In this document: in pieces, positions 4,224 through 50,072 of the stretch | How the letters are laid out: each line of letters starts with the position of its first letter | Numbering within the stretch: position 1 is the first letter of the stretch | DNA from: Planctomycetota bacterium | GTDB taxonomy: Bacteria > Planctomycetota > Phycisphaerae > Phycisphaerales > SM1A02 | Assembly (NCBI GenBank): GCA_018970045.1 | Contig: JAGWXC010000001.1 | Location: 1-59,508, forward strand | Direction of reading: 5' to 3' | Length of the DNA stretch: 59,508 bases | Position numbers and translations under genes: made by a program | Notes under the pieces: model-generated | The model's database searches: none | What the model saw: the letters and a program-made list of their open reading frames with translations, nothing else | What the model was told of the DNA's origin: nothing

Positions 4224-4314
4224 GATGCGGAATTCTCCGTGGGGTGCCTGACTGGATTCAGGGACTTCTGAAACAGTAGCCCGATTGGGCGGCAAGTCGA
4301 GCCCGGGGACACAT

Positions 4315-4329
4315 CGTTTGGGCAAATCG
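4315..4329 (-). promoter_or_regulatory. degenerate copy of the CGATTTxCCGGAAA element upstream of the metalloprotease gene
   Basis: In gene orientation it reads CGATTTGCCCAAACG. It shares CGATTTGCC with the proximal site of the 13816-14154 gene, but the CCGG core is not conserved. Confidence 0.25.
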
Positions 4330-4342
4330 TTGACCGGCAGGC

Positions 4343-6108: not shown

Positions 6109-6163
6109 TGTCGCGCCCGCTGCCGCGTGGGACACGAGGCCGGATAGAGTTCGGCCCTTTCCC

Positions 6164-8939: not shown

Positions 8940-8956
8940 TCGCCGCGCCGTCGGCC

Positions 8957-10360
<1,404 letters not shown>

Positions 10361-11816: not shown

Positions 11817-12700
11817 GCGCCACCTCGGACGAGCGTGCGCACCGTCGCCTCCACGCCCACGGTCCACGACGGGCGCGCTGACGCGACGAGTGCATCGAGT
11901 CGACGACCGTCGAGTCGCGAGTTCATGGGTCGCATGGCCTTCAAAGGGTAATCGGCTGATGACACGGGCGTGACGGCATCGGCGGTGCAGCGGAGGCTGG
12001 CTCCCAGCGCGGATGCCGTCCGCAGCGCGTGGCACGCAACCTCGTGCCATGACGCGTGGCCCGACGGGACGGCGTGCACGATCGGGGGCACGTCGCTGCC
12101 CTGAGCGAATCGATCAGCCAGATCGACGATCGTCACAGCCAGCCAGCCAGCCTCGGTAGGCGCGCCGATCTGGTCGCTTACGACCCGGAGCGTGTTGCGG
12201 TCGGTTGCTGCACCGAGGATGCTCCGCACGAAGTTGCGGCCGGAGCCTCCATGAAGCCAGCTCGTCCGCACGATCATGGCATGCCCTGTCGTGAGGCACG
12301 CTCGCTCTCCCACGAGTTTGCTCCGTCCATAGGCATTCAGCGGCGACGGTTCGCTCTCCTCCGTCCATGGGCGATCACCGCTCCCATCAAAGACATAGTC
12401 CGTCGAGACCTGCACCAGTCGCGCGCCGACGTGGCCGCACGCCTGCGCCGCTTCGGCGACGGCGTGGCCATTGATGCGGGTGGCCAGCGCTTCAGACGAC
12501 TCGGCACCATCGACGTCGGTCCAGGCGGCGGCGTTGATCACGACCGCGGGCCTGATCCGAGCGATCAGGTCGGCAACCTGTCCTGGGGATGCAAGGTCTG
12601 CCACCGTCCGGTCGGCAGCCGTCAGGCCCCAGGCTGTCGGCGCAACGCGGCTGATCGCTGCACCGAGTTGCCCGCGTGCCCCAAGCAGCAGCACCTTCAT
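11813..12700 (-). CDS. rfbD: dTDP-4-dehydrorhamnose reductase
   Basis: [13 protein letters not shown] Rossmann motif, VSTDYVFDG and [13 protein letters not shown] overlaps at both ends. Confidence 0.9.
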
Positions 12701-13752
12701 GGACCGTACTGCTCCCGCACCCACGACGCGTAGGCACCCGAGCGGATGCGTCCAAGCCAGGCCTCGTTCGCGAGGTACCAGCGGGCCGTCTCGCGCAGGC
12801 CGTCCGTCAGGGACTGGCGTGGCAACCAGCCGAGTTCGTCGCGCGTTGACGAGGCATCGATGGCATACCGACGGTCGTGGCCGGGGCGATCCTCGACGAA
12901 CCGGATGAGGCTTGCGTGTGGCGCGCTGCTGGGCCGCAACTCATCGAGCGCACTGCACAGCGACTGCACGAGATCGATGTTGGCGCACTCCCCGTGACCG
13001 CCGACGAGGTAGGTCGATCCTGGAACGCCGCGATCGAGGACGGCGCGCAGGGCCGCGCAGTGATCGTCCACATGCAGCCAGTCGCGGACCTGGCGCCCGT
13101 CGCCGTAGATCGGGATGGTCTCGCCTGCGGTGGCGCGCGCGATGCACAAGGGGATCAACTTCTCCGGGAACTGGCGCGGGCCGTAGTTGTTGGAGCAGTG
13201 CGTCGTGATCGTTGGTAGTCCATGGGTGACATGCCACGCCCGCACGAGATGGTCGGCCGCGGCCTTGCTTGCCGCGTACGGGCTGTTGGGGCGGTAGTGG
13301 CTGGCGCGGTGAAATGCGGGTTCGTCGGGGCCGAGCGATCCGAAGACCTCGTCAGTTGACACGTGGACGAAACGGAATCCACTGCGTTCGGCAGGGCTTC
13401 GCGCGCTCAAGTGGTCGGTGCATGCCTGCAGCAGGCACGCTGTACCGCCGACGTTCGTGGACACGAATGCATCTGCGCCCTTGATGGATCGATCGACGTG
13501 CGTTTCCGCGGCGAAGTGCACGACGGCCCGCGGCTGGACCTCGTCGAGCAGCCGACGCACCGTCCCGGGATCGCGTACATCGCCGCGCACGAATCGGTGC
13601 GGAGCGGATGCCGGCAGCGTTGCAAGGTTGTCGAGGTTGCCCGCGTAGGTCAGCAGGTCAAGCGTGACGATCGGCTCAGGCGACTGGGCGCACCAAGCGT
13701 GCACGAAGGCACTGCCGATGAAACCTGCTCCGCCAGTGACCAGAATTGGCAC
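12697..13752 (-). CDS. rfbB: dTDP-glucose 4,6-dehydratase
   Basis: MPILVTGGAGFIGSAFV, HFAAETHVDRSI, YAASKAAADHLV and HCSNNYGPRQFPEKLIP. Confidence 0.95.
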   Translation of the reverse strand: MPILVTGGAGFIGSAFVHAWCAQSPEPIVTLDLLTYAGNLDNLATLPASAPHRFVRGDVRDPGTVRRLLDEVQPRAVVHFAAETHVDRSIKGADAFVSTNVGGTACLLQACTDHLSARSPAERSGFRFVHVSTDEVFGSLGPDEPAFHRASHYRPNSPYAASKAAADHLVRAWHVTHGLPTITTHCSNNYGPRQFPEKLIPLCIARATAGETIPIYGDGRQVRDWLHVDDHCAALRAVLDRGVPGSTYLVGGHGECANIDLVQSLCSALDELRPSSAPHASLIRFVEDRPGHDRRYAIDASSTRDELGWLPRQSLTDGLRETARWYLANEAWLGRIRSGAYASWVREQYGP

Positions 13753-13815: not shown

Positions 13816-14154
13816 TCACTGCGGGCAGGCGCCCCAGGCGCTGAGCAAGTAGCCGAGGTCCTCGCCGTCGGTGCTGCCGTCGCCGGAGATGTCGCCGCCT
13901 GAGGCCCCCCACGAGGAGAGCATCAGCCCAAGGTCGCCGCCGTCGACCGCGCCGCTGCCATCAAGGTCAGCCGGGCACGGCGGGGCGCCGGAGCCGGAAC
14001 CCGATCCCATCAGCTGGTGACCGCTGGAAAAGTCGTCATTCTTGGGGGCCTGCAGCCCGCTGTCGCCTCGGTCGCGCGGTGCCGGAAGAGCGGACGGGAT
14101 CAGGGCGGCGAGTCCGACGGAACAGACAACGACGGTGGCAATGGCATGGGTCAT
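13816..14154 (-). CDS. small secreted protein consisting essentially of the double dockerin-like module
   Basis: Signal/TM segment MTHAIATVVVCSVGLAALIPSALPA, then CPADLDGSGAVDGGDLGLMLSSWGASGGDISGDGSTDGEDLGYLLSAWGACPQ. Confidence 0.7.
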   Translation of the reverse strand: MTHAIATVVVCSVGLAALIPSALPAPRDRGDSGLQAPKNDDFSSGHQLMGSGSGSGAPPCPADLDGSGAVDGGDLGLMLSSWGASGGDISGDGSTDGEDLGYLLSAWGACPQ

Positions 14155-14177
14155 GGCGGAGGAACCATACCCTCTTG

Positions 14178-14198
14178 TGAATTTCCGGCAAATCGCGG
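14178..14198 (-). promoter_or_regulatory. proximal CGCGATTTGCCGGAAATTCA element (gene orientation)
   Basis: The CCGG core at 14185-14188 lies 34 nt upstream of the 14154 start. It shares CGCGATTT..CCGGAAA with the site at 35048-35067. Confidence 0.5.
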
Positions 14199-14200
14199 TT

Positions 14201-14220
14201 GAGAAATTTCCGGAATTCCG
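14201..14220 (-). promoter_or_regulatory. distal GAATTCCGGAAATTTC element (gene orientation)
   Basis: Shares the 13-mer TTCCGGAAATTTC with the site at 31584-31600. It is 25 bp centre-to-centre from the proximal site. Confidence 0.5.
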
Positions 14221-30686: not shown

Positions 30687-31586
30687 ATGGCCATCGCGTT
30701 CAAGCGTCACTTCCGCGAGTTCAGTCGCTTCCTGCGCACGGAACGTCGTAGCTTTGGGAATCGTCGCGTCCCCGGCCCGTGGATTCCCGGGAGCCAACAC
30801 CCCGATTCGCTGCTGCTGGTCACGCTCGATTCGTGCCGATGGGACACCTTCGATCGTGTGCCGACCCCAAACATCGATGCGGTGGGCACGCCACACCGCG
30901 TCATGGCACCGTCCTACTTCACCTTTGCATCGCACGCGGCCATGTTCGTCGGCTTCACGCCCGGCGATGGACTGCGTTCGGAACCGATCGTGAATCCGAA
31001 GTACGGCAAGCTCGTCCGGCTCGACGGGGGTGGGACGCGGTCGCAGGGCCGGGATCGGTTCGTGCTCGGGGGTCGCTCGATCATCGATGGCTTCAATCGT
31101 CGCGGGTACATCACCGCGGGCACGGGTGCCGTCAAGTGGTTCGATGACAGTTCGCCGGCTGGAACCACCCTCGTGCGCGACTTCCAGCACTATCGGTACG
31201 CGGGCAACTGCTGGTCCCTCGGTCGGCAACTCGAGTTCCTCGCCGACAAGGTGGGGGGGGCGCGCCAACCGGTCTTCTGTTTCCTCAACGTCGGTGAGAC
31301 GCACGTGCCGTATTGGCATGAGGGAGCGCCGTGGGACCGCACGCGGGTGCCGTGCCGTGCCTTCGCGGAGACGAACGACCGCGAGGAGAGCGCTCGCCGG
31401 CAGGGCGAATGCCTCGCGTTCGTCGATCGCACGCTCGGCCCGCTGCTGCAGGCCTTTTCCGCCGCCAACATCATGGTGTGCGGGGACCACGGCGATGTGT
31501 GGGGTGAGGACGGCGTCTGGGAGCACGGCTTCCATCACCCCAAGGTGATGGAGGTTCCGATGGCGTTTCGGTTGTCCGTGAGCTGA
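30687..31586 (+). CDS. alkaline-phosphatase/sulfatase-superfamily hydrolase-like protein
   Basis: LLLVTLDSCRWDTF metal-site-like N-terminal motif and a later GDHGDVWGEDGVWEHG segment (the GDHG of AP-superfamily enzymes). The family call is tentative. Confidence 0.45.
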   Translation: MAIAFKRHFREFSRFLRTERRSFGNRRVPGPWIPGSQHPDSLLLVTLDSCRWDTFDRVPTPNIDAVGTPHRVMAPSYFTFASHAAMFVGFTPGDGLRSEPIVNPKYGKLVRLDGGGTRSQGRDRFVLGGRSIIDGFNRRGYITAGTGAVKWFDDSSPAGTTLVRDFQHYRYAGNCWSLGRQLEFLADKVGGARQPVFCFLNVGETHVPYWHEGAPWDRTRVPCRAFAETNDREESARRQGECLAFVDRTLGPLLQAFSAANIMVCGDHGDVWGEDGVWEHGFHHPKVMEVPMAFRLSVS

Positions 31587-31600
31587 TTTCCGGAAATTTC
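31584..31600 (+). promoter_or_regulatory. palindromic TGATTTCCGGAAATTTC element
   Basis: Contains the 12-bp perfect palindrome ATTTCCGGAAAT. The CCGG core lies 76 nt upstream of the ATG at 31666. It overlaps the stop codon of the preceding gene. Confidence 0.5.
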
Positions 31601-31665
31601 GCTTGCGGCTGCCGGGGCGGAGGCAACACTCCAAAGTCTCCCCGAGACCCAAGGAACCCCCTGAC

Positions 31666-33768
31666 ATGCTGCGTACCTGCCTTGCCGTCCTGTGTGTCGC
31701 CCTCTTCGCGCCAGTTCCAACCGCCATCGCCCAGGATTGCAATGGCGACGGGCTTCCCGAGTCGCAGCAGATCGGCGTGCAGGGCCTGACCGCGCAGTAC
31801 TTCGCCAACCGCACGTGGAGCGGCCCCCCGGCAGCCGTGCAGGTTGATCTCACAGGCTCGGGCGGATTCGACCTCTCCGATTGGCCCCTGCCAGCCGGTG
31901 TGCCGCAGGATCTCTTCAGCGTGCGATGGACGGGCTCGATCAACTTCAGCACGACAGGTCTCTTCCAGTTCCGGGTGTCCTCTGACGATGGATACCGCCT
32001 CTACCTCGATGGCGTGCTCATCGGGACGTCAGAGGGCAACGTTGGGAACCAGGTGGTCCCGGCCGCTCCGATCAACGTCACAGCGGGTGCCCACTACCTG
32101 AGGGTGGAGCTTCGCGAGGACTTCGGCGGACAGAAGATGCGACTTGAACGCAAGCAGTCCACGGCCACCACGTGGAATGTCATCGCCAACAGCAATTTCC
32201 TCGCTGGGGCTGACCGGGATTCCAATGGAACGCTGGACGTGTGCCAGTTCGGCGACTGCAACGCGAACTTCGTGCCTGACTCGGTCGACATCGCCAACGC
32301 GCCGTCCATCGACTGCAACGGCAATGGCGTTCTGGATACCTGCGAGGCTCCGTCAAACGACTGCGATGCCAACGGCATTCCCGAGTCGTGCGAAACCACC
32401 GGCGGCGGCCTGGCGGGGTTCTACTTCGCGACGCCTGACTTCACGGGGCCGGTCACGGCGCGTCGTCGTGATGCGATGGGCCCACTCGGGCTCGACTTCA
32501 ACGTCACCCAGGAAGGCCTCAACGATTGGCAGCCCGCAGGCATTCCCACGGACAACTTTTCCGCGCGGTGGGTCGGCAGCCTGATCGTCCCAGCCTCGGG
32601 CCAGTACGACTTCGAGCTTCGCTCGGACGACGTCGGCGAACTGGTCATCGATGGCGTCCCGCTCGCAGCGACCAACAACAGCACCGAGGAGCGCGGGCCG
32701 TTCTTCCTCTCGGCCGGGCCGCACTTCTTCACCGTGTCCTTCCGTGAGTTTGGTGGCGACCAGCGTGTGCGGGTTCGATGGCGCGTCTCGGGGCAGTCGA
32801 GCTGGCAACCGATTCCCGGCAGTGCCTTCATCCCCCGGTACGACGGCGACGCCGATGGCCTCAACGACGCCTGCGAGTCCGGAGACTGCAACGGAAACCA
32901 GATGCCTGACGGCCTCGAGCTCTCGCTCGGGCTGGCCAGCGACTGCGATGGTGATGGCACGCTCGATGCGTGCGAGGTCGCGTCGGGTGCACCGGATTGC
33001 AACGACAATCTCGTTCCTGATGCGTGCGAAGCCTCGGTCAGCGGTCTGTTTGGCCGCTACTTCGTCCGACTCGGTTCGAGCAATCCCGCGAATCCGTACC
33101 AGCCGGGCCAGCTGTTGGCGGCGCGTCGGGATTCCAACGTCGCATTCTCCAACTCCTTCTGGATGCCCACAGGCGTCCCCGCTGACGAGTTCATCGTCGT
33201 CTGGACGGGCTCGATCACCGCTGGTCCTGAGTCCGGTGTCTGGTCGTTCCGCACGGACTCCGATGATGGAGCGCGCTTGACCATCGACGGAACGACCGTG
33301 ATCGACGGCTGGCTGGGCGACTCCGGCATCCGAACCGGATCCATCACCCTGCAAGCGGGCGCGACCTATGACCTCAAGCTCGAGTACCACGAGGGCAACG
33401 GGGGGCAGTACTGCGTCCTGGGGTGGTCGCCGCCATCGGCGAGTGGAGCCCCCGTCTTCACCACTGTCCCATCGACAGCGCTGCGTGTGGCCACGCCTGA
33501 CTGCAATGCCAACGGCATCCCCGACGATTGCGACATCGCATCGGGTTCGCTGCCGGATCCGGGGTTCGGCATCCCTGCGCCCTGCGCCGCCGGCCCAGCT
33601 TGCCCGGCCGACCTAACCTCCGACGGCGTGATCGACGGCGCGGACCTTGGCTCACTGCTCACGCAGTGGGGGTGCGCGTCGGCGTGCAGCGCTGACCTCG
33701 ATGCGAGCGGGACCGTCGACGGTGCTGACCTCGGCATCATGCTCACGTCGTGGGGTTCGTGCCCGTGA
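31666..33768 (+). CDS. secreted protein with three PA14 domains, Cys-rich DCNxNGxPDxC mini-repeats and C-terminal double dockerin-like module
   Basis: Signal peptide MLRTCLAVLCVALFAPVPTAIA|QD. PA14 hallmarks appear three times (GLTAQYF...FSVRWTG...FRVSSDDGYRLYLDG; GLAGFYF...FSARWVG...SDDVGELVIDG; GLFGRYF...VVWTG...DSDDGARLTIDG). C-terminus is [24 protein letters not shown]...[24 protein letters not shown]. Confidence 0.8.
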   Translation: MLRTCLAVLCVALFAPVPTAIAQDCNGDGLPESQQIGVQGLTAQYFANRTWSGPPAAVQVDLTGSGGFDLSDWPLPAGVPQDLFSVRWTGSINFSTTGLFQFRVSSDDGYRLYLDGVLIGTSEGNVGNQVVPAAPINVTAGAHYLRVELREDFGGQKMRLERKQSTATTWNVIANSNFLAGADRDSNGTLDVCQFGDCNANFVPDSVDIANAPSIDCNGNGVLDTCEAPSNDCDANGIPESCETTGGGLAGFYFATPDFTGPVTARRRDAMGPLGLDFNVTQEGLNDWQPAGIPTDNFSARWVGSLIVPASGQYDFELRSDDVGELVIDGVPLAATNNSTEERGPFFLSAGPHFFTVSFREFGGDQRVRVRWRVSGQSSWQPIPGSAFIPRYDGDADGLNDACESGDCNGNQMPDGLELSLGLASDCDGDGTLDACEVASGAPDCNDNLVPDACEASVSGLFGRYFVRLGSSNPANPYQPGQLLAARRDSNVAFSNSFWMPTGVPADEFIVVWTGSITAGPESGVWSFRTDSDDGARLTIDGTTVIDGWLGDSGIRTGSITLQAGATYDLKLEYHEGNGGQYCVLGWSPPSASGAPVFTTVPSTALRVATPDCNANGIPDDCDIASGSLPDPGFGIPAPCAAGPACPADLTSDGVIDGADLGSLLTQWGCASACSADLDASGTVDGADLGIMLTSWGSCP

Positions 33769-33805
33769 GCGACCGAGGTACAACGCTTGCCGTTACGATC
33801 CTGTC

Positions 33806-35023
33806 ATGAGCCGCCCCCGCGCCGCCCATGAAGCCTCAGGTGCAGCATCGGTCAGGATCGCGCTGCTTGAACTCAAGTCCGCGATGCAGGAACTGCTGAG
33901 CGCGGTACCCGGTCTCACGGGATTCCGGCCGGTCGACATCGAGAGCGCTCTCGGGATCGATCTCAAGCTCGCCTGGAAGGTGTCGCATATCGCGCATGCC
34001 GGCGATCCGTTCGATGCGGTTCGTCATCTTCCGGGTGACTTGGCTGGATCGATCGTCGCCGAGGCTGCTCGGCAGCGGGGCGTGCCTCTGGCCCGGATCG
34101 TGGCCATGCGAAAGGCGCTCGCCAACGTGCAGGAACTCGGGACGGCATGGGCCGGCAGCAAACGCGCCTTCGCCCTGCTCAGTGCCAACTTGGCCACTGC
34201 GGAGGACGGACGTTTCGCGCTGGAGCGCCGCAAGGAACTCTTCAATGGCGGCATGCACGTCTGGGGCATGCGTGCGTCCAGCGCATTTCGTGTCGACATC
34301 CTGCATCCAGCGACCAACGGTCGCGTGATCGATTGTCTGACGGTGCGTGGATTCGTGGATCTTGAGCGCCTTCGATTCGATGCTGCCTGGCGGCTCGATG
34401 GACCAGCGGTGGTCGACGATCGCGGCCGTTCGAGCTCGCGATCGTTCGTAGAGGCTCCGAAGGGCGTGAAGGGGGCACGTTCTCCGTTCCTTGTTCCCGA
34501 GCTGTGCAGCGGGACCATGCCGACGCTTGATCGAGTCACGGGTGATCACTCCCTCCACCTCGCCACTGGTGAAGTCGGACGCGCTAGCGCCAGCACGGTC
34601 GTCCAGGCCGCCATCGTTCGCCGCGTCCAGCCGCGGGGGCCAAGCAAGGACTATTCGGGCTTCTTTCAGGTGTTCCGCCTCCGCACACCCAGCGAGTCGC
34701 AGGAATTCGTGGTTGGCGTGCACCGGAGTCTGGTACCCGTTGGCGTGCAGCCGGATGCGGTCGTCTACGGCGATCTGTACGGGGCACCGGAGCGGCGTGT
34801 TCCATACCACCTCGGTGACCGGCTCCAATGCAGCGCGAGCGTCGAACAGATCGCTCCTCGGCCGAAACTTCGTGTGGCGGGCGTGCCGGAGTTGGACCAT
34901 TGGGTCGACGGCCAACTCTCAGCGCTCGGCTGGCCACGCGGTGACCTCCTCTGGTTCAAGGCCACGGTGAGCTTTCCACCGGTACCGAGCACGCTCGTGG
35001 TCCAGATGCCGCAGGCCGAGTGA
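33806..35023 (+). CDS. hypothetical cytoplasmic protein (405 aa), no recognisable motif
   Basis: No signal peptide or TM segment. Only 37 nt downstream of the PA14 gene, so probably co-transcribed. The upstream ORF extension overlaps the PA14 gene and was discarded. Confidence 0.55.
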   Translation: MSRPRAAHEASGAASVRIALLELKSAMQELLSAVPGLTGFRPVDIESALGIDLKLAWKVSHIAHAGDPFDAVRHLPGDLAGSIVAEAARQRGVPLARIVAMRKALANVQELGTAWAGSKRAFALLSANLATAEDGRFALERRKELFNGGMHVWGMRASSAFRVDILHPATNGRVIDCLTVRGFVDLERLRFDAAWRLDGPAVVDDRGRSSSRSFVEAPKGVKGARSPFLVPELCSGTMPTLDRVTGDHSLHLATGEVGRASASTVVQAAIVRRVQPRGPSKDYSGFFQVFRLRTPSESQEFVVGVHRSLVPVGVQPDAVVYGDLYGAPERRVPYHLGDRLQCSASVEQIAPRPKLRVAGVPELDHWVDGQLSALGWPRGDLLWFKATVSFPPVPSTLVVQMPQAE

Positions 35024-35047
35024 GCCACGCCCAACAGCGTGAAGTCG

Positions 35048-35067
35048 CGCGATTTCCGGAAAATCGG
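35048..35067 (+). promoter_or_regulatory. palindromic CGCGATTTCCGGAAAATCGG element
   Basis: Contains the 10-bp perfect palindrome TTTCCGGAAA. The CCGG core lies 77 nt upstream of the ATG at 35133. Confidence 0.5.
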
Positions 35068-35132
35068 TTTCACGAGCGCCTGACTTTGGTGCATAGTTAC
35101 CCCGTGCGACGGTCGCATCCCGCACCCCACCC

Positions 35133-38100
35133 ATGATCCTGACATCGATCCTGACCGCCATCGTTGCCCTCACGCCCCCTGATTGCAACGCCAATGGTGT
35201 CGCCGACTGGCAGGACATCGCGACGGCGACCTCAAACGATGTCGGCAACGACGGGGTACCCGACGAGTGCCAGGACTGTGCCGACGGTGATGGCAACGGC
35301 ATGCCGGACTCCCTCGAGCAGGGTGCCGGACTGATCGGGCAGTACTGGAACGATTCGATCGGCACGACCGGCACCTTTCGGCAGCGCGTCCTCGTGCGCA
35401 TCGATCCCACCGTGAACTTCGACTGGGCTGGGGGCTCTCCCGACCCCTCGCTGCCGATTGACGATTTTTCCGTTCGTTGGACCGCCACCATGACGGCGCC
35501 GACCACCGGTCCTTGCACCTTCTACTCGCGCAGCGACGACGGGTTCCGGCTCTGGATCGATGGCATGCCCATCATCGACGCGTGGGTCGCCCAAAGCGGG
35601 ACGCTCTGGTACTCGGGAACCGTCGACCTCGTCGCCGGCCAACGCTACGCCTTCCGCGTTGACTACTACGAGGGTGGAGGCCAGGCCAAGGCGTTCCTTG
35701 AGTGGCAGCCGAACGGCCTGCCCCGTGCCGTCGTGCCAACCTCGGCGTTCCGTGCGATGACTGACCTCGACGGCGATGGAGTGCCCGATCTTGCGCGTGA
35801 TTGCGATGGCGACGGCATCTCCGACGGTGCCGAACTCGAGGCTGGTACTGCCTTCGACTGCAACGAAAATTGTCTCGTGGACGACTGTGAGCCGGAGGTG
35901 GCGGCGGTGTCGGGCTACTGGCGATTCGAGGAGGATGGACAAGTAGTCGCAGACAGCGGTCCGTTCGGTCTCTCCGGCACGGGATCTGCACTCGCGCGGG
36001 GAGCCGCGGTAGCGGTCGACGTCGTGCCTGCGACGGCGCAAGCGAATCTTCGGAGCACGCTGATCGCGCCTCCAACGGGTTCGACAGGACAGGCGGTGGT
36101 GCAGGATCCGCAGGGGCGCTTGGCGTCCTCGGGAGAGAGTTTCACGGTCGAGGCGTGGGTCAAGCTGGATTCGCTCGCCAACGGGTCCACGGCCGAAGAA
36201 CGCCAGGTGCTCGTGCAGCGCAAGCCGACCAATCTCGGCGATCGATCGGCGGATTACATCTTCTGCGTGCAGGCGGGGGACTACCCCCAAAAGGGCATCC
36301 GGAACTTCGGCGACGGCAGCGGCGGTCGGAACATCACCATGCTGTTCGGCAATGGCGGCGCCGCCAACGCCAGCTTCTGGACCGTCACGAGCGATCTCAC
36401 GATCAGCGACAACCAGTGGCACTACGTCGCTGCGATCGTTGACGCGGACCGCAGCGAGGTGACCTTCATCGTTGACCAGCGGATCGACGTCGTGACCTTC
36501 CTCAGCCTCGGTCGGGTCATCGTCGATGCCCCGCTCGTCATAGGCGCGCACACCAACACCGCCGGCCAGTTCAACCAACGCCTGCGCGGCAGCGTCGATG
36601 AGCTACGCATCTGCAGCGGCACGGTGCCGGTCGCGGCGTTGCTGCAGCGGGCCGGCACCAGCGATTGCAATGCATCCGGCCAGCCGGACAGCTGCGACAT
36701 CCAGCAGGGAGCCATCGACTGCGACGTGAACGGGGTGCCCGACGATTGCCAGTTCGATTGCGACCGCAACGGACTCGCCGATGTCTGCGACATTGCCAAC
36801 GGCGGGGCTGACTGCAACGCGGACGGCCTGCTCGACTCCTGCCAGATCGTCGGCAACGACTGCGACGGCAATGGCGTGCTGGATGCCTGCCAGCTTGCCC
36901 AGGGTGACTGCAACGACAATGGCGAGCTCGATTCGTGCGAAGTGGCGAGCGATCCGTCGATCGACTGCGACGCCAGCGGCACGCCCGACGTCTGCCAGAT
37001 CGAGGAAGAGACCACCTATCGCACGAGTGACTCCTTCCCCGAGTTCGGCATCCGCGCACTCGGCGACCATATGGCGTGGCTCACGAGCCATCGGGTTGTC
37101 GGCGGGGCAGGCATGATCGAGGCCGTGGAGGCCATGTTCGTCTTCCTTCCCGAGGACCATCCGGTCAAGGTGTGCCTGTGGTCCGATCCGAACAACGATG
37201 GCGAACCGAGCGATGCCCAGCTCCTGGCATCGGTCGACGACGTCGCCGCTCCGCTCACCCTCCTGCGCCGGTTCGACATTCCGGACACCGAGATCGGTGG
37301 GGATGGCACCTCGTTCTTCGTGGGCGCGATCGTCACCACGGACTCCATCTCAACGCTCTTCCCTGGCCCGCTCGACAGCAGCGGAAACGCGCTCAACCGT
37401 CGCTCGTGGATCGTGGGCAGCGACTCGCCGATCGATCCGAACAACCTCTCGGCGAACGCCGCCGAGTTCAGCACGGTTGAGGTCGCACTGCCGTTCCCCG
37501 GCAAGTGGCTGCTTGGTGCGGTCGCTGTCGCACGCAACGGCGATTGCAATGACAACCAAGTGCTCGATGGATGCGACATCACGGCCGGCACGAGCAGTGA
37601 CGCTGACCAATCGGGTCGGCCGGATGAATGCGAGGACTGCAACTCCAACGGCACGCTCGATTCAATCGACATCGCTTCCGGCGCGAGCCTTGACTGCCAG
37701 AGGGACCTCGTGCCTGACGAATGCCAGGCGAGCGGGCTCGGCGAGGATTGCAACCAGGACCTGGTGCCTGACGCCTGCCAGCTCGAGGGCAACGATTGCA
37801 ACACCAATGCCGTGCTCGACTCCTGCGACATCGCCCAAGCGACCAGCCCCGACCTCGATGGATCAGGGATCCCTGACGAGTGCGAGGATTGCAATGGCAA
37901 CGGTGCCCTTGACAGCGCTGACGTCGCCACCGGATTCAGCCCCGATTGCCAGCCCGACGGCATCCCGGACGAGTGCCAGCTCGGGACGCCGCCGACTGCT
38001 GTGCAGTACCGCGTGGACGACGGAACCCGCGAGGGCAACTACGGCGTCTCGGGCCGATCCGACATGGTCTGGCTGAATGCCTTCACCGTCGAACCCGGGG

Positions 38101-38783
38101 GCGAGTGGATCGGCAGCGTGTCGGTGGTCATCGGCAACGGGTTTGCGGGCAGCCCCTATGAGGTGCTTGTCTGGAGCGATCCCAATGGCGACGGCATCCC
38201 TGCGGATGCGCAGGTCCTGACCCGAGCGCCGGCGCGAGTGCGCGATGGCAACACAAGCATCTTCAACGATGCCGCCATCGACCCCACCTACATCGGCCCG
38301 GTCGGTACGCGGTTCTTTGCCGGGGTGCGGTATCAGGATCCCTACGGGAACCAGGCCGTGATCCCCGCGGATCTCGGCGGCCCGCTCAACCAGAGCTGGA
38401 TCGCGGTGGGGGCGATCGACACGGTCGACGTCAACAACCTCTCCGCAGCACCGATCTATGGCTATCTGACGCAGGCGAACACGCTGCTGCGGGCCAATGG
38501 ATTCGACGGCGTGCTGCCGTTCGACTGCAATCGCAACCAGGTGCCCGACGCATGCGATCTTGCGAGCGGCCAAGGCACCGACGGCAACGGCGACGGGATC
38601 CCCGACCAGTGCCAGGGATGTCGTGCCGACCTGAACGGCAATGGCGAGGTCGATGGCGCTGACCTCGGGATCATCCTCGTGAATTGGGGCGGCTCCTCTG
38701 GGCTCGCCGACCTGAACGGCGATGGCACGATCGATGGTGCCGACCTCGGCATCATTCTGGTGTCGTGGGGCTCGTGCGGCTGA
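35133..38783 (+). CDS. giant secreted protein (1216 aa): PA14, LamG/ConA-like, two blocks each of Cys-repeats plus an unknown domain, then a double dockerin-like module
   Basis: PA14 (GLIGQYW...FSVRWTA...SRSDDGFRLWIDG...YYEGGG). LamG-like (SGYWRFEE...FTVEAWVKLD...WHYVAAIVD...VDELRICSG). C-terminus is CRADLNGNGEVDGADLGIILVNWG...DLNGDGTIDGADLGIILVSWGSCG. Confidence 0.8.
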   Translation: MILTSILTAIVALTPPDCNANGVADWQDIATATSNDVGNDGVPDECQDCADGDGNGMPDSLEQGAGLIGQYWNDSIGTTGTFRQRVLVRIDPTVNFDWAGGSPDPSLPIDDFSVRWTATMTAPTTGPCTFYSRSDDGFRLWIDGMPIIDAWVAQSGTLWYSGTVDLVAGQRYAFRVDYYEGGGQAKAFLEWQPNGLPRAVVPTSAFRAMTDLDGDGVPDLARDCDGDGISDGAELEAGTAFDCNENCLVDDCEPEVAAVSGYWRFEEDGQVVADSGPFGLSGTGSALARGAAVAVDVVPATAQANLRSTLIAPPTGSTGQAVVQDPQGRLASSGESFTVEAWVKLDSLANGSTAEERQVLVQRKPTNLGDRSADYIFCVQAGDYPQKGIRNFGDGSGGRNITMLFGNGGAANASFWTVTSDLTISDNQWHYVAAIVDADRSEVTFIVDQRIDVVTFLSLGRVIVDAPLVIGAHTNTAGQFNQRLRGSVDELRICSGTVPVAALLQRAGTSDCNASGQPDSCDIQQGAIDCDVNGVPDDCQFDCDRNGLADVCDIANGGADCNADGLLDSCQIVGNDCDGNGVLDACQLAQGDCNDNGELDSCEVASDPSIDCDASGTPDVCQIEEETTYRTSDSFPEFGIRALGDHMAWLTSHRVVGGAGMIEAVEAMFVFLPEDHPVKVCLWSDPNNDGEPSDAQLLASVDDVAAPLTLLRRFDIPDTEIGGDGTSFFVGAIVTTDSISTLFPGPLDSSGNALNRRSWIVGSDSPIDPNNLSANAAEFSTVEVALPFPGKWLLGAVAVARNGDCNDNQVLDGCDITAGTSSDADQSGRPDECEDCNSNGTLDSIDIASGASLDCQRDLVPDECQASGLGEDCNQDLVPDACQLEGNDCNTNAVLDSCDIAQATSPDLDGSGIPDECEDCNGNGALDSADVATGFSPDCQPDGIPDECQLGTPPTAVQYRVDDGTREGNYGVSGRSDMVWLNAFTVEPGGEWIGSVSVVIGNGFAGSPYEVLVWSDPNGDGIPADAQVLTRAPARVRDGNTSIFNDAAIDPTYIGPVGTRFFAGVRYQDPYGNQAVIPADLGGPLNQSWIAVGAIDTVDVNNLSAAPIYGYLTQANTLLRANGFDGVLPFDCNRNQVPDACDLASGQGTDGNGDGIPDQCQGCRADLNGNGEVDGADLGIILVNWGGSSGLADLNGDGTIDGADLGIILVSWGSCG
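36660..37010 (+). repeat. coding tandem array of about 7 DCNxxGxxDxC(x)I mini-repeats (13-19 aa each)
   Basis: DCNASGQPDSCDIQQGAI / DCDVNGVPDDCQF / DCDRNGLADVCDIANGGA / DCNADGLLDSCQIVGN / DCDGNGVLDACQLAQG / DCNDNGELDSCEVASDPSI / DCDASGTPDVCQIEEE. Confidence 0.8.
37550..37985 (+). repeat. second coding array of the same Cys mini-repeat (about 7-9 units)
   Basis: DCNDNQVLDGCDI.., DQSGRPDECE, DCNSNGTLDSIDI.., DCQRDLVPDECQ.., DCNQDLVPDACQ.., DCNTNAVLDSCDI.., DGSGIPDECE, DCNGNGALDSADV.., DCQPDGIPDECQLG. Confidence 0.8.
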
Positions 38784-45622: not shown

Positions 45623-46160
45623 GTGTAGGGTCACCTCTGGTTGATGCAAAGCCCCGACGGCCACCACGGGCCGCGCGCGCGTGGAGGGTAGGGGAGCGCG
45701 AGAACGTGCGGCAACGGGGCGAGGTTCGTTGGAGCCGCGGAGCGAGGCGGACTTCGCAGGACCTTGACGATTCCGCAAGTCGATTCAGGACAGGATGTTG
45801 CACTCGTCCATAATCCCGGTTCCAACTTTCCCATCAAAAAACTGAGCCCCTCGCTTGCCCACTTTCGGGGTCGGGCTATGGTCTTCCCGCATCCCCCACG
45901 GATGCGGTTGGGCTGGGAAAAGGGACCACCCGACATCGCGGCACGAGGAAGGAAAGCCCGTGCTGCAACCTTGCGCGCCTCGCGTGCAGGACCCTGGGCT
46001 TGGAAACCCCAGGAGTCGGACAAATCGTTCGCTTGGCTTGGCGTGGCGCCAATCCAAGCAACCCTCGATCTATGTGTTCGAGGGAGAAGGTTGATCCATG
46101 CCCATTTGGGGCAGGCATGGTGTTCCATCCCCCGCCCCGGAGTCCTGAGAGGAGAAATCC

Positions 46161-46814
46161 ATGACCCGTTTCGTGCTCGCTACCGTCGTCGCTTCGACCC
46201 TCGCCTCTGCCGCTTCCGCCAGCTTCACCGGGTACTCGGTTGAGCGCGTGCTGACCGCCGGTGGCAACTCGCGCTACTCGGTGTACGCAAACTTCAACGC
46301 CAGCAACCTGGTGTTCCTGAACGCCTTCAGCTTCGTCAACGTCTCGGGCACCATGAACGCCCGTCACCAGGACTTCTTCACGGCTGACGGCCTCGTCGGC
46401 ACGTGGACGGCCGGTACCTCGGTTTCCGCTGCTGATCGCGGCGAGGACTCGTGGGTCACCGCCAGCGGCCTGGCGACCAGCTCGGGCTGGGGCACCGCTC
46501 TCGACCCCGGCTTCACCGCTGGTGGCGAAGTCGGTGACATCAACAACGGCGCTGGCTGGTACGACGCCACCCCCGGCACGGCCAACGCCATCGGCGCTGG
46601 CGGCACCCAGGGCGGCTTCCGCATGCTGATCGCCCAGATCGTCCGCTCGGGCGATGACTCGGCGCAGGCAGTGTCGAACCACTCGCTGCAGCTCTCGTGG
46701 AAGGTCGCCGGCACCACCACCGCGATCTTCGGCAACGGCTCGTTCACCATCCCGGCCCCCGGCGCGATGGCGCTCCTCGGCCTCGCTGGCCTCACTGGCC
46801 GCCGTCGCCGCTGA
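46161..46814 (+). CDS. PEP-CTERM sorting-domain secreted protein
   Basis: Signal peptide MTRFVLATVVASTLASAASA. C-terminus is IPAPGAMALLGLAGLTGRRRR (P-x-P motif, TM, Arg cluster). GGAG ribosome-binding site at -9. Confidence 0.85.
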   Translation: MTRFVLATVVASTLASAASASFTGYSVERVLTAGGNSRYSVYANFNASNLVFLNAFSFVNVSGTMNARHQDFFTADGLVGTWTAGTSVSAADRGEDSWVTASGLATSSGWGTALDPGFTAGGEVGDINNGAGWYDATPGTANAIGAGGTQGGFRMLIAQIVRSGDDSAQAVSNHSLQLSWKVAGTTTAIFGNGSFTIPAPGAMALLGLAGLTGRRRR

Positions 46815-46847
46815 ACCGTCCTCAGGACTGATCAGCTCAATGATCAT

Positions 46848-46885
46848 CGCCGGCGCGGAGTTTCTCCGCGCCGGCGGTTGCTTTT
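46848..46885. terminator. strong bidirectional terminator between PEP-CTERM gene and OLD nuclease gene
   Basis: Perfect 13-bp stem CGCCGGCGCGGAG-TTT-CTCCGCGCCGGCG, followed by GTTGCTTTT. Confidence 0.8.
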
Positions 46886-46893
46886 GGGGTGCG

Positions 46894-48519
46894 TCACCCG
46901 CGGATGGACTGGCGGGCCAGACTGATGGCGCTGGCCACCACGTCGCCAAGTTCCTTGGGAACCAGTTGCTCTGGGTCGGCCGCCATCGCATCGAGCAGTC
47001 GTCGCGCCAGCCCCGGCTTGGTGTGACGGCGGATGGCATCGTCGATGGCACGGCCCGGGGATCGCCCGCTCCCAGCCTCGGCACCGTAGGCAGATTCAAG
47101 GATCGCGCCCTCCAGGCCTCGGTCCCAGAAGTAGCGCTCGATCGAGTTGGCTGGCAGCACGGTCAGCCGGCAAGGGGCGATGGCATCGTGTCGGTGGATG
47201 ACGTCTGCGTACCCGCGTCCGGCTGCATCGCCATCCACGAGCGCGTGCACCGGCATGGCCAGTGATGCTGCAAGCCGGAGCACGGACTCGAGTCCAGCTT
47301 GCGCGAACTCAACCACCCGAACACCCTCAGCATCCAAGTCATGGTCCAGCAAGGAGGCGACTCCCGGCAGGCTCCAGAACTCGGTCTCGCCTTCGACCAG
47401 GATCCAGGCGCGTGCAAAGAACGCCCCGCCCCGCAGTGTGCGGATGTGGTACGACAGCCGTCGCACGTCACTCTCGGAAAGATCCTTTGACTTCACGCCG
47501 TGGGCGAGGGTCCGGTCCGGTCGACGGACCAGCCTGCGGATCGCGCGAAGGTCGATGGCGCCAAGGAAATCCGGCGAGTTCGTCGTGACCAGTCGCTGCG
47601 CCGGAAGCTGCTCGACCAGGCTCCAAAGGTTGGACAGCAGGGTTGGGTGCAAGTGGGTTTCTGGGTCCTCGACCAAGAGGATCGGCCGAACGGCTTCGCC
47701 CACCCCGCGTCGGTCAGCCTTCAAGAGCGCGTGTGCCGCGATCAGCATGGCGCACACTCGGTCGGCGTTCGCAGGCCGTCGCTCCGCATGCCGCCACGCG
47801 CTGGGAAGTCCCCGGAGTTCAGACACGAGGTCAAGACTCGCGGCATCGCGCAGTCGGCGATCGGAGAGCTCCATGGTCGCGGCCTCGGCACTGCGTAGGA
47901 GTGCCTGGCGAGAGGGTGGCCCCTCGCGATCGGGAGACATCCAAGCCCCCATGGCGGAGGTCCACGCGGCGTCAGCCTGGGGTGAAGCCCGTTCCTGACC
48001 AACGACATCCCACAACGAGAGCCGGATGACGGGGAGCTGGCGTCGAAGTTCCGCATGCGCGGCCTGTGCCTCGGACGGGGCCAGCGGAATGGGATGTCCC
48101 GCGCCGTCGAGGATGGCTGGAGTGGTCGCTCCGCCTTGATGGGTCAGGGCCAACCGAACTGCGCGATGCCCGAAGATGGTGCAATGAAGCTTGGCCAAGG
48201 GCGGACAGCAGTCGAACTCCCCTGGCTGGGATTCCCCGATGTCGAGCGAGATGACGATGGGATCCGTCACGCCCGCCGTGCGGTCCGCTTCGCTGAGCCC
48301 TTGTTCGTCAGGACCAAGGACCGACTCGAGCGCTCGTCCCAGGCTGGTCCGGCCCCACTGGTTTTCGCCGATCAGCACCGTGGTGTCGCGACGAAGTCTG
48401 AGCTGAAGGCTGCGAAGGCCCCGAAAGTTGCGAATGCTGAGGTGACGAAGGTGCACAGCAGGGCTCGTTTGGTCCAATAATAGGTAATTCAGCTGTCCGC
48501 GGCGAGTTCGGACCGTCAC
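46894..48519 (-). CDS. OLD-family (YbjD/DUF2813-like) ATPase-Toprim nuclease
   Basis: N-terminal LRHLSIRNFRGL...VLIGENQWGRTSL (Walker A-like), ILLVEDPETHLHP (Walker B/D-loop), and Toprim ILVEGETEFW...LVDGDAAG. The ORF-track start is a GTG; another in-frame GTG at 48456 is also possible. Confidence 0.8.
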   Translation of the reverse strand: MTVRTRRGQLNYLLLDQTSPAVHLRHLSIRNFRGLRSLQLRLRRDTTVLIGENQWGRTSLGRALESVLGPDEQGLSEADRTAGVTDPIVISLDIGESQPGEFDCCPPLAKLHCTIFGHRAVRLALTHQGGATTPAILDGAGHPIPLAPSEAQAAHAELRRQLPVIRLSLWDVVGQERASPQADAAWTSAMGAWMSPDREGPPSRQALLRSAEAATMELSDRRLRDAASLDLVSELRGLPSAWRHAERRPANADRVCAMLIAAHALLKADRRGVGEAVRPILLVEDPETHLHPTLLSNLWSLVEQLPAQRLVTTNSPDFLGAIDLRAIRRLVRRPDRTLAHGVKSKDLSESDVRRLSYHIRTLRGGAFFARAWILVEGETEFWSLPGVASLLDHDLDAEGVRVVEFAQAGLESVLRLAASLAMPVHALVDGDAAGRGYADVIHRHDAIAPCRLTVLPANSIERYFWDRGLEGAILESAYGAEAGSGRSPGRAIDDAIRRHTKPGLARRLLDAMAADPEQLVPKELGDVVASAISLARQSIRG

Positions 48520-48681
48520 ACGATCAAGCCTGAATGAAAATCCGGCTCAAATGGGGCCTTACCTCCTTGCCTTGCGCAGAACTGGCGGCACCTTCTGGCC
48601 ACGTGACGGCGATGCTGCAGTCACCCGGCAGGCGTAAGCCAGCCGTCCAACTCGAGGGATCAGGGGTCTGGAGAATGACCC

Positions 48682-49272
48682 ATGCGATTCCTCGCCCTGA
48701 GCATCACGGCTGCTGCACTCACCGCGTCTGCGCACGCGAAGTTCATCACCACCAACGACAAGAGCGTGTTTGATCTGCTGAGCCAGCAGGGCGGTTACGC
48801 GCTCGCTGGAGAGAACTTCGGCGGCTACAGCGGCTTCTATTCATCGCTCTCGGGCGGCACTGGCGCAACGGCCTGGCAGGCCACCGCGCTCGGCGGCCTC
48901 TACGTCGGTTCGGGCGGCCAGCTCAGCACCAACAATGCCGACGCCGCGCTCACCATGAGCTTCTCCTCGGGAGACGTGTACGCCATCGGCGGGAACTTCT
49001 TCCTCACGGACTTCAACTTCGGGTTCCTGCCCGGATTGGTGCAGGTCGAGTTGGCTGACGGCAGTTCCTACATTGCCAACATCCAGAACGCGAACTCCTT
49101 CAGCGGGTTCGTGAGCTTGGGCTCCGCCATCAGCCAGATCACGATTTCGCCCTTCGGCGTGCAGCCGAACGCGTATGTGACGGCGACCAACCTGTGCTTC
49201 GGTGTTGTGCCGGCGCCGGGCGCGGTGGCGCTGATGGCCGTTGCCGGCTTGGTGAGCCGCCGACGTCGCTGA
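48682..49272 (+). CDS. PEP-CTERM sorting-domain secreted protein
   Basis: Signal peptide MRFLALSITAAALTASAHA. C-terminus is VVPAPGAVALMAVAGLVSRRRR. Confidence 0.85.
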   Translation: MRFLALSITAAALTASAHAKFITTNDKSVFDLLSQQGGYALAGENFGGYSGFYSSLSGGTGATAWQATALGGLYVGSGGQLSTNNADAALTMSFSSGDVYAIGGNFFLTDFNFGFLPGLVQVELADGSSYIANIQNANSFSGFVSLGSAISQITISPFGVQPNAYVTATNLCFGVVPAPGAVALMAVAGLVSRRRR

Positions 49273-49296
49273 AATCGAAGCGAAACGTGGATTACC

Positions 49297-49329
49297 GGAC
49301 AGGCGCCGAGTGGCGTCTGTTCTGTTTTT
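49297..49329 (+). terminator. rho-independent terminator
   Basis: ACAGGCGCC-GAGT-GGCGTCTGT stem (one G-U pair), followed by TCTGTTTTT. Confidence 0.7.
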
Positions 49330-49454
49330 GCAAAGTGCGTTGAAGAGGCTTGCCAAAGATCCCCCCTCGCGTCATCATGCGCCGCGCCCGGGGGCGGAGC
49401 AAGATCCAATCGTTGGAGGGATAAGGAAGGTGATCACTTCCCTCGGAGATCACC

Positions 49455-50072
49455 ATGTTTCGTATGACTTGCCTTGCCGCCGCGACCGCGTTCGTGGCCT
49501 CGTCCGCTCAGGCGGCGCTCATCGGTGTCAATTCGCTCTCGCTCTACCAGTCGTTCGTCGGCGGGCAGGCTTTCCAAGATCAGTCGATCGACCTGAACGC
49601 CTTCGGCGTCGGCGTCGTCACCAGCCCGCTGCAGGGCGTGACCGGCGGTACGGCATGGTCGGCCTCGGCCAACGATGGTCTTTACCTGGGCACGCTGACC
49701 TCCGGAACCCGGTTCCTGAGCACGTTTGCCGCCAATCGCGAACTAACCATCTCGTTTGACGGCGCGGGCGTGATGGCCTTCGGCGCCAACACCTTCCTGA
49801 CCAATGATGGCGACCAGGTCATCGCCGGCAACGTGCTGATGCGGCTCTCCGATGGCACCACCTTCGCTGGAACGGTCGGCTCCGAGTCGTCGTTCTATGG
49901 TTGGGTCAGCGAAGGGGATGTCACGATCACCTCGGTCACGTACCGCCCGTTCCTCTCCGGAACCGGCTCCTTCGCCAGCCTGTCAGACCTTCGCTTCGCC
50001 TTGATTCCCAGCAGCGGCGCCATGGCCATTCTGGCACTGGGTGGCTTCGTGGCCGTCCGCTCACGTCCCTGA
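49455..50072 (+). CDS. paralogue of 48682-49272 with degenerate PEP-CTERM-like tail
   Basis: Signal peptide MFRMTCLAAATAFVASSAQA. Shared core (GGTAW.A.A..GLY.G...FL.ND/TDF...L.DG..F/Y). The tail LIPSSGAMAILALGGFVAVRSRP lacks the P-x-P. Confidence 0.7.
   Translation: MFRMTCLAAATAFVASSAQAALIGVNSLSLYQSFVGGQAFQDQSIDLNAFGVGVVTSPLQGVTGGTAWSASANDGLYLGTLTSGTRFLSTFAANRELTISFDGAGVMAFGANTFLTNDGDQVIAGNVLMRLSDGTTFAGTVGSESSFYGWVSEGDVTITSVTYRPFLSGTGSFASLSDLRFALIPSSGAMAILALGGFVAVRSRP

Follow-up and report, generated by a model that had tools for sequence, protein, structure and literature searches.

A conserved palindrome upstream of PA14/dockerin genes in Phycisphaerales-type planctomycetes as a candidate operator with a possible link to rhamnose metabolism

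Operators of LacI-family regulators have a central CG, as in that of Escherichia coli GntR (...TTACCGGTAA...), and follow the consensus TGnAAnCGnTTnCA. The sites of CRP/FNR regulators are found at -61.5 in class I promoters and at -41.5 in class II promoters. In the rhamnose regulons described so far, local regulators belong to the AraC (RhaS/RhaR), DeoR and LacI (RhaR) families only, in a survey that did not cover Planctomycetota (Rodionova et al. 2013, PMC3870299). On transcriptional control in Phycisphaerae we found almost nothing published, and a literature search on GC-type dockerins found nothing. Here, we analyzed a 59,508-nt stretch of DNA from a Planctomycetota bacterium (contig JAGWXC010000001.1, positions 1 to 59,508; hereafter the window), in which an A/T-rich palindrome with the core wTTC[C/T]|[G/A]GAAAw lies upstream of genes for PA14 and dockerin-tagged proteins. 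This element is very probably a conserved cis-regulatory protein-binding site that defines a regulon of these genes. The fuller statement, in which the palindrome would be the operator of a dimeric regulator, a 405-aa protein encoded between two of the genes, and would control a rhamnose-related regulon, is one to which we give about an even chance.

The locus resembles the described rhamnose regulons in that the gene for the candidate regulator stands, in relatives, beside or divergent from rhaI/rhaD-type genes, in that a short symmetric motif recurs, and in the comparative-genomics logic that connects the two. In contrast to the regulators of those regulons, the 405-aa candidate, which lacks Pfam domains, is outside the AraC, DeoR and LacI families, and its targets would mostly be secreted PA14/dockerin proteins together with dTDP (deoxythymidine diphosphate)-rhamnose synthesis rather than catabolic genes. 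As far as we checked, TTTCCGGAAA, which is the palindrome of one of the sites, is not among the described rhamnose-regulator motifs. Like LacI-family operators, the element is a palindrome of even length, has CCGG at its centre and arms rich in T/A, and is associated with sugar-related genes. However, its arm sequence differs from that of the LacI-family consensus, and neither the window nor the surroundings of any site yielded a LacI-family gene. A literature search for TTTCCGGAAA matched only eukaryotic NF-kB/STAT oligonucleotides. The STAT GAS element (TTCCnGGAA) and NF-kB probes have near-identical letters, which is a coincidence that implies no evolutionary or mechanistic relation.

Palindromes and their downstream genes in the window

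Two copies of the palindrome had been pointed out in a preliminary description of the window, whose GC content is 65-72%. Site 1, TGATTTCCGGAAATTTC, is found exactly at 31584-31600 and contains a perfect 12-bp palindrome (ATTTCCGGAAAT), and site 2, CGCGATTTCCGGAAAATCGG, is found exactly at 35048-35067 and contains a perfect palindrome of 10 bp. Their CCGG cores start at 31590 and 35056, respectively, at distances of 76 and 77 nt from the downstream ATGs (31666 and 35133). On re-check, the coordinates, the sequences and both palindromes that had been described proved exact. Both sites are real, but a third exact copy of TTCCGGAA, at 14208-14215, had been overlooked. It is located 57 nt upstream of a minus-strand gene encoding 112 aa (13816-14154). 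The three occurrences of TTCCGGAA in the window compare with 0.48 expected, a count of three being reached in none of 100 shuffles, and GATTTCCGGAAA with at most two mismatches gives eight matches vs. 1.55 expected. Each of the three exact copies of TTCCGGAA is followed, within 80 nt, by a gene with a dockerin-like tail. As delimited here, operator site 1 is GATTTCCGGAAATT (31585-31598, plus strand), centred between 31591 and 31592, and begins 1 nt past the T of the TGA stop codon of the upstream hydrolase gene. Operator site 2 is GATTTCCGGAAAAT (35051-35064, plus strand), centred between 35057 and 35058, and operator site 3 is GAATTCCGGAAATT (14205-14218, minus strand), centred between 14211 and 14212. 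We rejected TTCCGGCA, at 14183-14190, as a second operator of the third gene: since orthologues keep only TTGCCn there, it is read as the -35 box of that gene.

Genes 1 and 2, which follow sites 1 and 2, had been described as sharing an architecture, and both indeed encode PA14 domains and a C-terminal dockerin-like double repeat. The product of gene 1 (31666-33768, plus strand) is secreted and 700 aa long, and combines three PA14 domains and Cys-rich spacers with the double repeat. Gene 2 (35133-38783, plus strand) encodes a 1216-aa protein in which PA14 and Laminin_G_3 precede the double repeat. We kept the ATG at 35133 as its start because the alternative GTG at 35105, which we rejected, is not conserved in the relative locus L005. 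Gene 3, the small dockerin gene downstream of site 3 (13816-14154, minus strand), encodes a secreted protein of 112 aa with little beyond a signal peptide and a GC-type dockerin double repeat. This repeat, DLxGDGxVDGxDLGxxLxxWG, is the same module as in genes 1 and 2, and its match to NF041540 ("GC-type dockerin") is below the cut-off (E 6.5e-4).

Between genes 1 and 2 lies the 405-aa gene (gmid; 33806-35023, plus strand), which encodes a cytoplasmic protein of an uncharacterized family. It starts 37 nt after gene 1, with which it is probably co-transcribed. Gene 3 is followed, 63 nt downstream and on the same strand, by rmlB (12697-13752, minus strand; TIGR01181, 4.5e-128) and rmlD (11813-12724, minus strand; TIGR01214, 2.1e-79). 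These two (11813-13752) are the first genes of a dTDP-rhamnose synthesis cluster in which rmlA and rmlC come next, according to the Pfam families reported for identical and orthologous loci. The order of gene 3 and the rml genes is conserved in orthologous loci. rmlB and rmlD are possibly co-transcribed with gene 3 and may therefore belong to the regulon. Two further genes of the window carry the dockerin-like module, one for an M10 protease (2760-4223) and one cut by the right end; no motif was found at the M10 protease-dockerin gene.

Conservation, symmetry and specificity of the element

The window comes from an uncultured planctomycete of the Phycisphaerales type that lives in freshwater lakes. 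Contigs near-identical to the window were found in metagenome assemblies only, and the lineages that carry the element are known here only as metagenome-assembled sequence. Another contig, CAMDAQ010000001.1, is 92% identical to the window. The CAMDAQ01 assembly (L005, L036, L073) is titled "Singulisphaera sp. GP187"; because the relatives found are all labeled Phycisphaerales/Phycisphaerae, this taxonomic label looks wrong. Gene 1 has a clear series of orthologues, with identities of 97, 78, 63, 63, 62 and 61% (full span 52-97%). Orthologous DNA was collected for six orthologue proteins first, with more added via a metagenome scan.

Seven to eight species keep the core wTTC[C/T]|[G/A]GAAAw in front of their orthologues of all three genes, while the DNA on either side, and even the genomic context, differs. 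Every gene-1 orthologue (protein identity 61-97%) has the motif upstream, counterparts of site 1 being found in L005, L085, L087, L088, L089, L090 and L094-L097. The motif is also present upstream of each gene-2 orthologue that has its own intergenic region (protein identity 54-96%), where counterparts of site 2 are found in L005, L085, L087, L088, L094-L099 and L108 and the upstream flanks diverge. Finally, it is present upstream of small-gene orthologues that are 73-84% identical (L091, L092, L093) and of distant homologues (L098, L099, L108), all of whose sites read AATTCC[G/A]GAAAT or CTTTC[C/T]GGAAAT. In a distant relative, the small dockerin gene directly adjoins the PA14 gene. Two loci, L089 and L090, are informative about what the element is tied to. 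There, the upstream neighbour is a Peptidase_M48 gene that replaces the glycosyltransferase/hydrolase cluster, and genes 1 and 2, spaced by 20-33 nt, are fused in one operon with a single motif before the pair. Since the motif stays despite the changed neighbourhood, the element travels with the downstream genes and not with the 3' end of the upstream gene. In L089, the Peptidase_M48 and PA14 genes are separated by a 1.1-kb non-coding block (8728-9815) resembling a miniature inverted-repeat transposable element (MITE), in which two direct repeats of 220 nt (98% identical) each bear terminal inverted repeats of ~40 nt and are nested inside inverted repeats of 47-52 nt (92-94% complementary). 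The operator of this locus, at 9931-9944, is just outside the block.

As for symmetry, the matrix built from 16 sites reads w-T-T-C-[C/T] | [G/A]-G-A-A-A-w. Seven positions are invariant, including T-4, C-2, G+2, A+3 and A+4, and T-3 is kept in 15 of the 16 sites. The central pair varies symmetrically, either C to T on the left or G to A on the right, to give TTCT|GGAA and TTCC|AGAA in either orientation, and the double-mutant core TTCTAGAA was found at none of the sites. The element thus has the two-fold symmetry, with both halves conserved, that is looked for in an operator. In L098 (~440-460), L099 (~535-555) and L108 (~465-485, all on the minus strand), an extra GGAAAT is found 12 nt upstream of the palindrome, the small-dockerin form in these loci being GGAAAT(A/G)TCTTTC(C/T)GGAAAT. 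Sites at the L-rhamnose isomerase gene rhaI in L103, L104 and L111, to which we return below, read GGAAATCTTTCC(G/A)GAAAA and likewise have an extra upstream GGAAAT. Lying one helical turn away, this third half-site may point to a binding unit larger than a dimer.

The element is also specific. In an unbiased 8-mer count over 20 upstream regions, the top ten words are all pieces of the motif, present in 10 and 9 of the 20 regions, compared with a maximum of 4 in 300 shuffles. A position weight matrix built from the sites, used at a threshold of 17 bits on 261,594 bp of clade DNA, found no sites beyond the known ones and one extra match, in the window, to a -35 box that partly mimics the motif. 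The pattern TTTC[CT]GGAAA has 11 matches in 1.36 Mb, all of which are intergenic and none coding. In the ~262 kb scanned, the element is thus restricted to functionally linked genes, at whose promoters it is located and in whose orthologous promoters it is retained.

This restriction does not follow the dockerin module, by which the preliminary description had expected the regulon to be marked, since the motif is missing from further dockerin genes, both of the window and of its relatives. We used GTDB species genomes to retrieve 80 loci with GC-type dockerin genes (1.17 Mb), and a regulon of all GC-type dockerin genes (NF041540) was rejected because 79 of the 80, all from other genomes, have no strong motif. 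The sole strong copy, GTGATTTCCGGAAAATCAC at L051:12830, heads a non-dockerin gene. Outside the clade of the window, these dockerin loci contain TTCCGGAA at background frequency and within coding sequence, and the extended A/T-flanked form is absent except for the strong copy in L051 and a weak match in L077. Even within the metagenome-assembled genome (MAG) of the 92% identical relative, neither L036, with four dockerin genes, nor L073, with one, has a site. In an unrelated Phycisphaerales MAG, a weaker variant, AAATCCCGGAAATC (L078:9015, 17.9 bits), lies in a divergent intergenic region upstream of a 704-aa gene with a dockerin-like repeat, with no 405-aa homologue within the 20 kb examined.

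These data also bear on whether the element has any regulatory role. It might instead be a repetitive extragenic palindromic (REP)/MITE-like repeat, an upstream terminator, a target for recombination or insertion, a restriction-methylation site or a product of chance, all of which together we regard as most improbable. The scattered REP-like spread that the preliminary description had named as the observation that would overturn its proposal did not hold in the relatives' DNA scanned: rather than many dispersed copies, no additional copy was found in the 262 kb of the clade. TCCGGA is a type II restriction site, yet CTGG/CCAG variants, which break it, are tolerated. Site 1 begins 1 nt past the T of the upstream TGA and sits in a local hairpin of -17.3 kcal/mol (z = -2.2), which speaks for a non-regulatory element; however, this hairpin has no U tract, no terminator-like site was found in any of the three site regions, no stable fold is predicted at sites 2 or 3 (z = +0.3), and the element stays with its downstream gene when the upstream gene changes. 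Rfam at gathering score matched only a tRNA in the window (963-1037) and left the motif unmatched. The site 1 hairpin is imperfect (31576-31612, CCGUGAGC...GCUUGCGG) and includes the stop codon of the STM4013-family hydrolase gene upstream.

Position of the element relative to predicted promoters

When the best -35/-10 pair after each site was sought with an automated scan, a promoter was predicted for each of the three genes. For gene 1 (31603-31630, plus strand), a -35 box TTGCGG (31603-31608) and a -10 box AACACT (31625-31630) are separated by a 16-nt spacer, and the centre of site 1 is 33 nt upstream of the predicted -10. The same architecture is found in L005, L085, L087 and L088, and across species the boxes are TTGCnn, N16 and nACnCT or TAGGAT. 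For gene 2 (35069-35097, plus strand), the predicted boxes are TTCACG (35069-35074) and CATAGT (35092-35097) with a 17-nt spacer, and the centre of site 2 is 34 nt upstream of the -10. In orthologues, the -35 is variable and the spacer N16-17, and the -10, CATAnT or TACnTT, is conserved in eight species at 32-34 nt from the site. For the small dockerin gene (14164-14191, minus strand), the predicted boxes are TTGCCG (14191-14186) and TATGGT (14169-14164) with a 16-nt spacer, and read TTGCCS or TTGACT, N16 and TAnnnT in seven species. The predicted -10 of this gene is 9 nt before the ATG, which would make the transcript near-leaderless.

Overall, 12 of the 15 promoters of genes 1 and 2 have the site centre 32-34 nt upstream of the predicted -10, and this distance is 42-44 nt at seven small-gene promoters and at the 405-aa homologue of L102. 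With the -10 box placed at -12 to -7, the site centres are at ~-45.5 and ~-55.5, a difference of one turn of the helix, and transcription is predicted to start at ~31637, ~35104 and ~14157 (minus strand). The preliminary description had drawn attention to an equal ATG distance, which holds in the window and in the closest relative but not in the orthologues, where it is 25-83 nt. It is a by-product, since the conserved quantity is the distance to the predicted -10. The suggestion made at the same time, that the palindrome is a dimeric operator or a shared promoter element, agrees well with the phylogenetic footprint, the specificity, the symmetric variation and the -10 spacing.

At the PA14, dockerin and rml promoters, a dimer would be directly upstream of the -35 and on one helix face, which suggests contact with RNA polymerase. 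As in activation by CRP/FNR, a symmetric dimer site would lie upstream of, or abut, the -35 at discrete positions one helical turn apart. In contrast to CRP/FNR, the positions are ~-45.5 and ~-55.5, no CRP/FNR-like protein is implicated, and activation is suggested by spacing only. At the PA14 and dockerin promoters, we favour activation because repression would not call for a pair of fixed phases that differ by 10 bp. Judged from sequence, activation at the PA14, dockerin and rml promoters is a tentative assignment, falling just short of an even chance, and repression is rather unlikely.

The A/T-rich composition of the element in DNA of 67% GC, and its location at ~-40 to -60, where UP elements lie, raise another explanation. 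The palindrome might be an intrinsic part of the promoter, either an UP-like element contacted by the alpha subunit of RNA polymerase or, since GGAAA is invariant in the promoter-proximal half, the -35 (GGAAAT) of an alternative or extracytoplasmic function (ECF) sigma factor, such as that encoded in the window at 5560-6183. However, the invariant C/G positions and the two-fold symmetric variation are not UP-like, and a sigma70-like pair is found further downstream. Moreover, the element occurs at two phases 10 bp apart and also inside the 5' end of rhaI, downstream of the promoter of that gene. We therefore consider an intrinsic promoter part very unlikely. ECF and sigma54 promoters as such were rejected because no conserved partner box, of the CGT/GTT type at 16-18 nt after GGAAA, was found.

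The ECF sigma gene appears to head an operon (2760-6183, minus strand) that continues with a gene for a 419-aa protein without Pfam matches (4343-5602), possibly an anti-sigma factor, and ends with the gene for the M10 (matrixin) protease (2760-4223), which has PPC and dockerin-like C-terminal modules. This operon has no TTCCGGAA, and CGATTTGCCCAAACG, upstream of the protease gene, resembles the -35 region of the small dockerin gene. A TAnnnT box 6-9 nt before the ATG or GTG is found in many genes of the clade, including the small dockerin gene, 405-aa homologues (TAGGAT, TAGATT, TAAACT, TAGAGT, TACGAT) and rhaI (TATCTT), the examples being drawn from L051, L098, L099, L102-L108 and L111. This implies that leaderless or near-leaderless mRNAs are common.

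The 405-aa protein and the rhamnose genes

The 405-aa gene is associated with the motif beyond the clade of the window. When its product was compared by tblastn with all loci, the single match outside the clade was in L051 (BLASTP E 3e-22), and the homologue there is the gene directly downstream of the L051 motif. In 1.17 Mb, the single strong motif and the single homologue are neighbours, a pairing that is not due to chance. The family comprises 25 close members and 2204 cluster representatives at E ≤1e-3 (~2200 clusters at 50% identity). Its members are ~400-430 aa long and unnamed, those sampled being "hypothetical", and the few organism labels are mostly Phycisphaerales MAGs. A metagenome scan with the family alignment identified 18 loci. 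Where the homologues are 66-91% identical (L094-L097, L100), the motif is upstream of gene 1 and of gene 2, or of gene 1 only in L100, which ends inside the homologue. Where they are 52-54% identical (L098, L099, L108), it is found directly after the homologue, upstream of gene 2, and also upstream of a small dockerin gene 5.5 kb away. In the most distant set, 36-44% identical (L102, L103, L104, L106, L111 and, weakly, L110), the motif is 100-180 nt upstream of the homologue itself.

These distant relatives provide the link to rhamnose. In L103, L104, L106 and L111, the gene divergent from the homologue encodes the L-rhamnose isomerase RhaI (TIGR02635, ~1e-148), followed in L103 and L106 by a gene for a bifunctional rhamnulose-1-phosphate aldolase/dehydrogenase, RhaD (Pfam Aldolase_II and adh_short; NF006189, E 2e-294 in L106). 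The palindrome is located between the 405-aa homologue and the divergent rhaI operon and overlaps rhaI codons 4-8 (E/L-F-S-G-K/N) in all four loci. rhaI has a TAyCtT box 6-7 nt before its start codon, which places the site centre at about +16 of the predicted leaderless transcript and suggests repression there. In the window, site 3 heads the small dockerin gene and then rmlB and rmlD, as described above. Finally, a 257-kb contig with a gene-1/gene-2 orthologue pair carries adjacent rhaM, rhaD-type, FGGY kinase and AP_endonuc_2 genes, together with a 405-aa homologue.

The 405-aa protein consists of an N-terminal all-helical domain, with the invariant RPVD...DLKLAWK...VRHLPG, and a C-terminal β-rich domain. 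The most conserved stretch of the family, RPVDxxxxLgIDLKLAWKxxxIAxxGDPFxxVRHLPG, is N-terminal. An AlphaFold model (predicted local distance difference test score, pLDDT, 84.6) displays eight helices in the N-terminal domain. When the whole model was compared with known structures, only weak matches were found, to the β-sandwich of M1 aminopeptidases (TM score 0.2-0.26). For the N-terminal domain, three of the four best-probability Foldseek matches are helix-turn-helix (HTH) proteins of the XRE/lambda type, with probabilities of 0.57 for RodZ, 0.41 for an XRE regulator and 0.33 for lambda cI, all at E ≥1. Three observations, the position of the gene, its pairing with the motif and an invariance that the N-terminal segment shares with the TTCC/GGAA core, point to the 405-aa protein as the candidate regulator, and that it is the binder of the palindrome we consider an evenly balanced proposition. 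More tentatively still, the protein may found an unrecognized one-component family of DNA-binding proteins, in which the N-terminal helical domain would read TTTCC|GGAAA and the β-sandwich C-terminal domain would sense rhamnose or a rhamnose-containing glycan, coupling rhamnose catabolism and dTDP-rhamnose synthesis to secreted PA14/dockerin lectin-like proteins.

The operator could also be real and its factor encoded elsewhere. The 405-aa protein would then only belong to the regulon throughout, perhaps as a cytoplasmic protein that has a β-sandwich domain and a role connected with rhamnose or glycans. The 405-aa family has no recognizable DNA-binding domain, the motif is present in L089 and L090 without a 405-aa gene nearby, and L098, L099 and L108 have no motif directly upstream of the homologue, all of which speak for such an arrangement. 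So does an unrelated HTH_20 gene right after the homologue in L106, but it is absent beside every other homologue and was rejected as the regulator, and no classical regulator recurs near the sites or is conserved in these neighbourhoods. By contrast, the 405-aa gene occupies the classic position of a divergent regulator beside rhaI, the most invariant segment of its product is an N-terminal helix-turn-helix-like stretch, and motif and gene are paired in the one positive locus of the 80. We consider a factor encoded elsewhere doubtful, though a serious alternative.

Several observations weigh against an operator read by the 405-aa protein at the promoters proposed above. No sequence homology was found for the protein when Pfam was run on 25 + 10 family members and NCBIfam on two, or in a profile search of the PDB. 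Searched alone with Foldseek against the PDB, the N-terminal domain (pLDDT 87) gave nothing significant, and its alignment by hhalign to a hand-made XRE alignment reached a probability of 0.2%. In L107, the homologue is divergent from rhaI but the motif was not found, and where the motif overlaps rhaI its conservation could be partly due to the protein sequence. At the level of the promoters, a strict sigma70 scan detected none in the three regions, so their positions come from conservation only. No convincing -10 lies at the usual distance in L089 or L090, and in L090 just 25 nt separate the site from the start codon. Both boxes, -35 and -10, are good at the small-dockerin promoters, which would be unusual if these promoters depended on an activator.

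If the 405-aa protein is the regulator, the following scheme would apply. In this freshwater clade of Phycisphaerales-type planctomycetes, a dimeric factor would bind wTTC[C/T]|[G/A]GAAAw and, in the window, would control the unit formed by gene 1 and the 405-aa gene (31666-35023), gene 2 (35133-38783) and the small dockerin gene (13816-14154), along with which the rml genes for dTDP-rhamnose synthesis would probably be controlled. Because site 1 heads the unit that contains the 405-aa gene, the regulator would be autoregulated. As effector, rhamnose or a derivative is our best guess.

Elsewhere in the window, the lowest GC content is found in a stretch at 46149-50072 (63-66% over 46-50 kb, with a minimum of 62.7% at 49-50 kb). 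It carries a gene for an OLD-family nuclease (DUF2813, TOPRIM and AAA; 46894-48519, minus strand) flanked by three small open reading frames without a Pfam match (46161-46814, 48682-49272 and 49455-50072), and may be a defence or mobile islet. At the left end, an open reading frame for an autotransporter β-domain (69-908) has its frame open to the end of the window, so that the gene may be cut, and is followed by the tRNA gene (963-1037, minus strand).

The biological implications are several. This analysis provides a concrete operator and a proposed regulon that would link secreted, carbohydrate-binding (PA14/LamG) dockerin-tagged proteins to rhamnose metabolism. It also gives a first picture of predicted promoters in this clade, with TTGnnn, a 16-nt spacer and TAnnnT, often 6-9 nt before the start codon. 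The operator and the regulon are new but of a familiar kind, whereas the family of the candidate regulator could be truly new. A candidate function can now be named for a large family of "hypothetical" proteins, and if it is true that the 405-aa protein binds the site, this family would represent a new DNA-binding family among one-component regulators.

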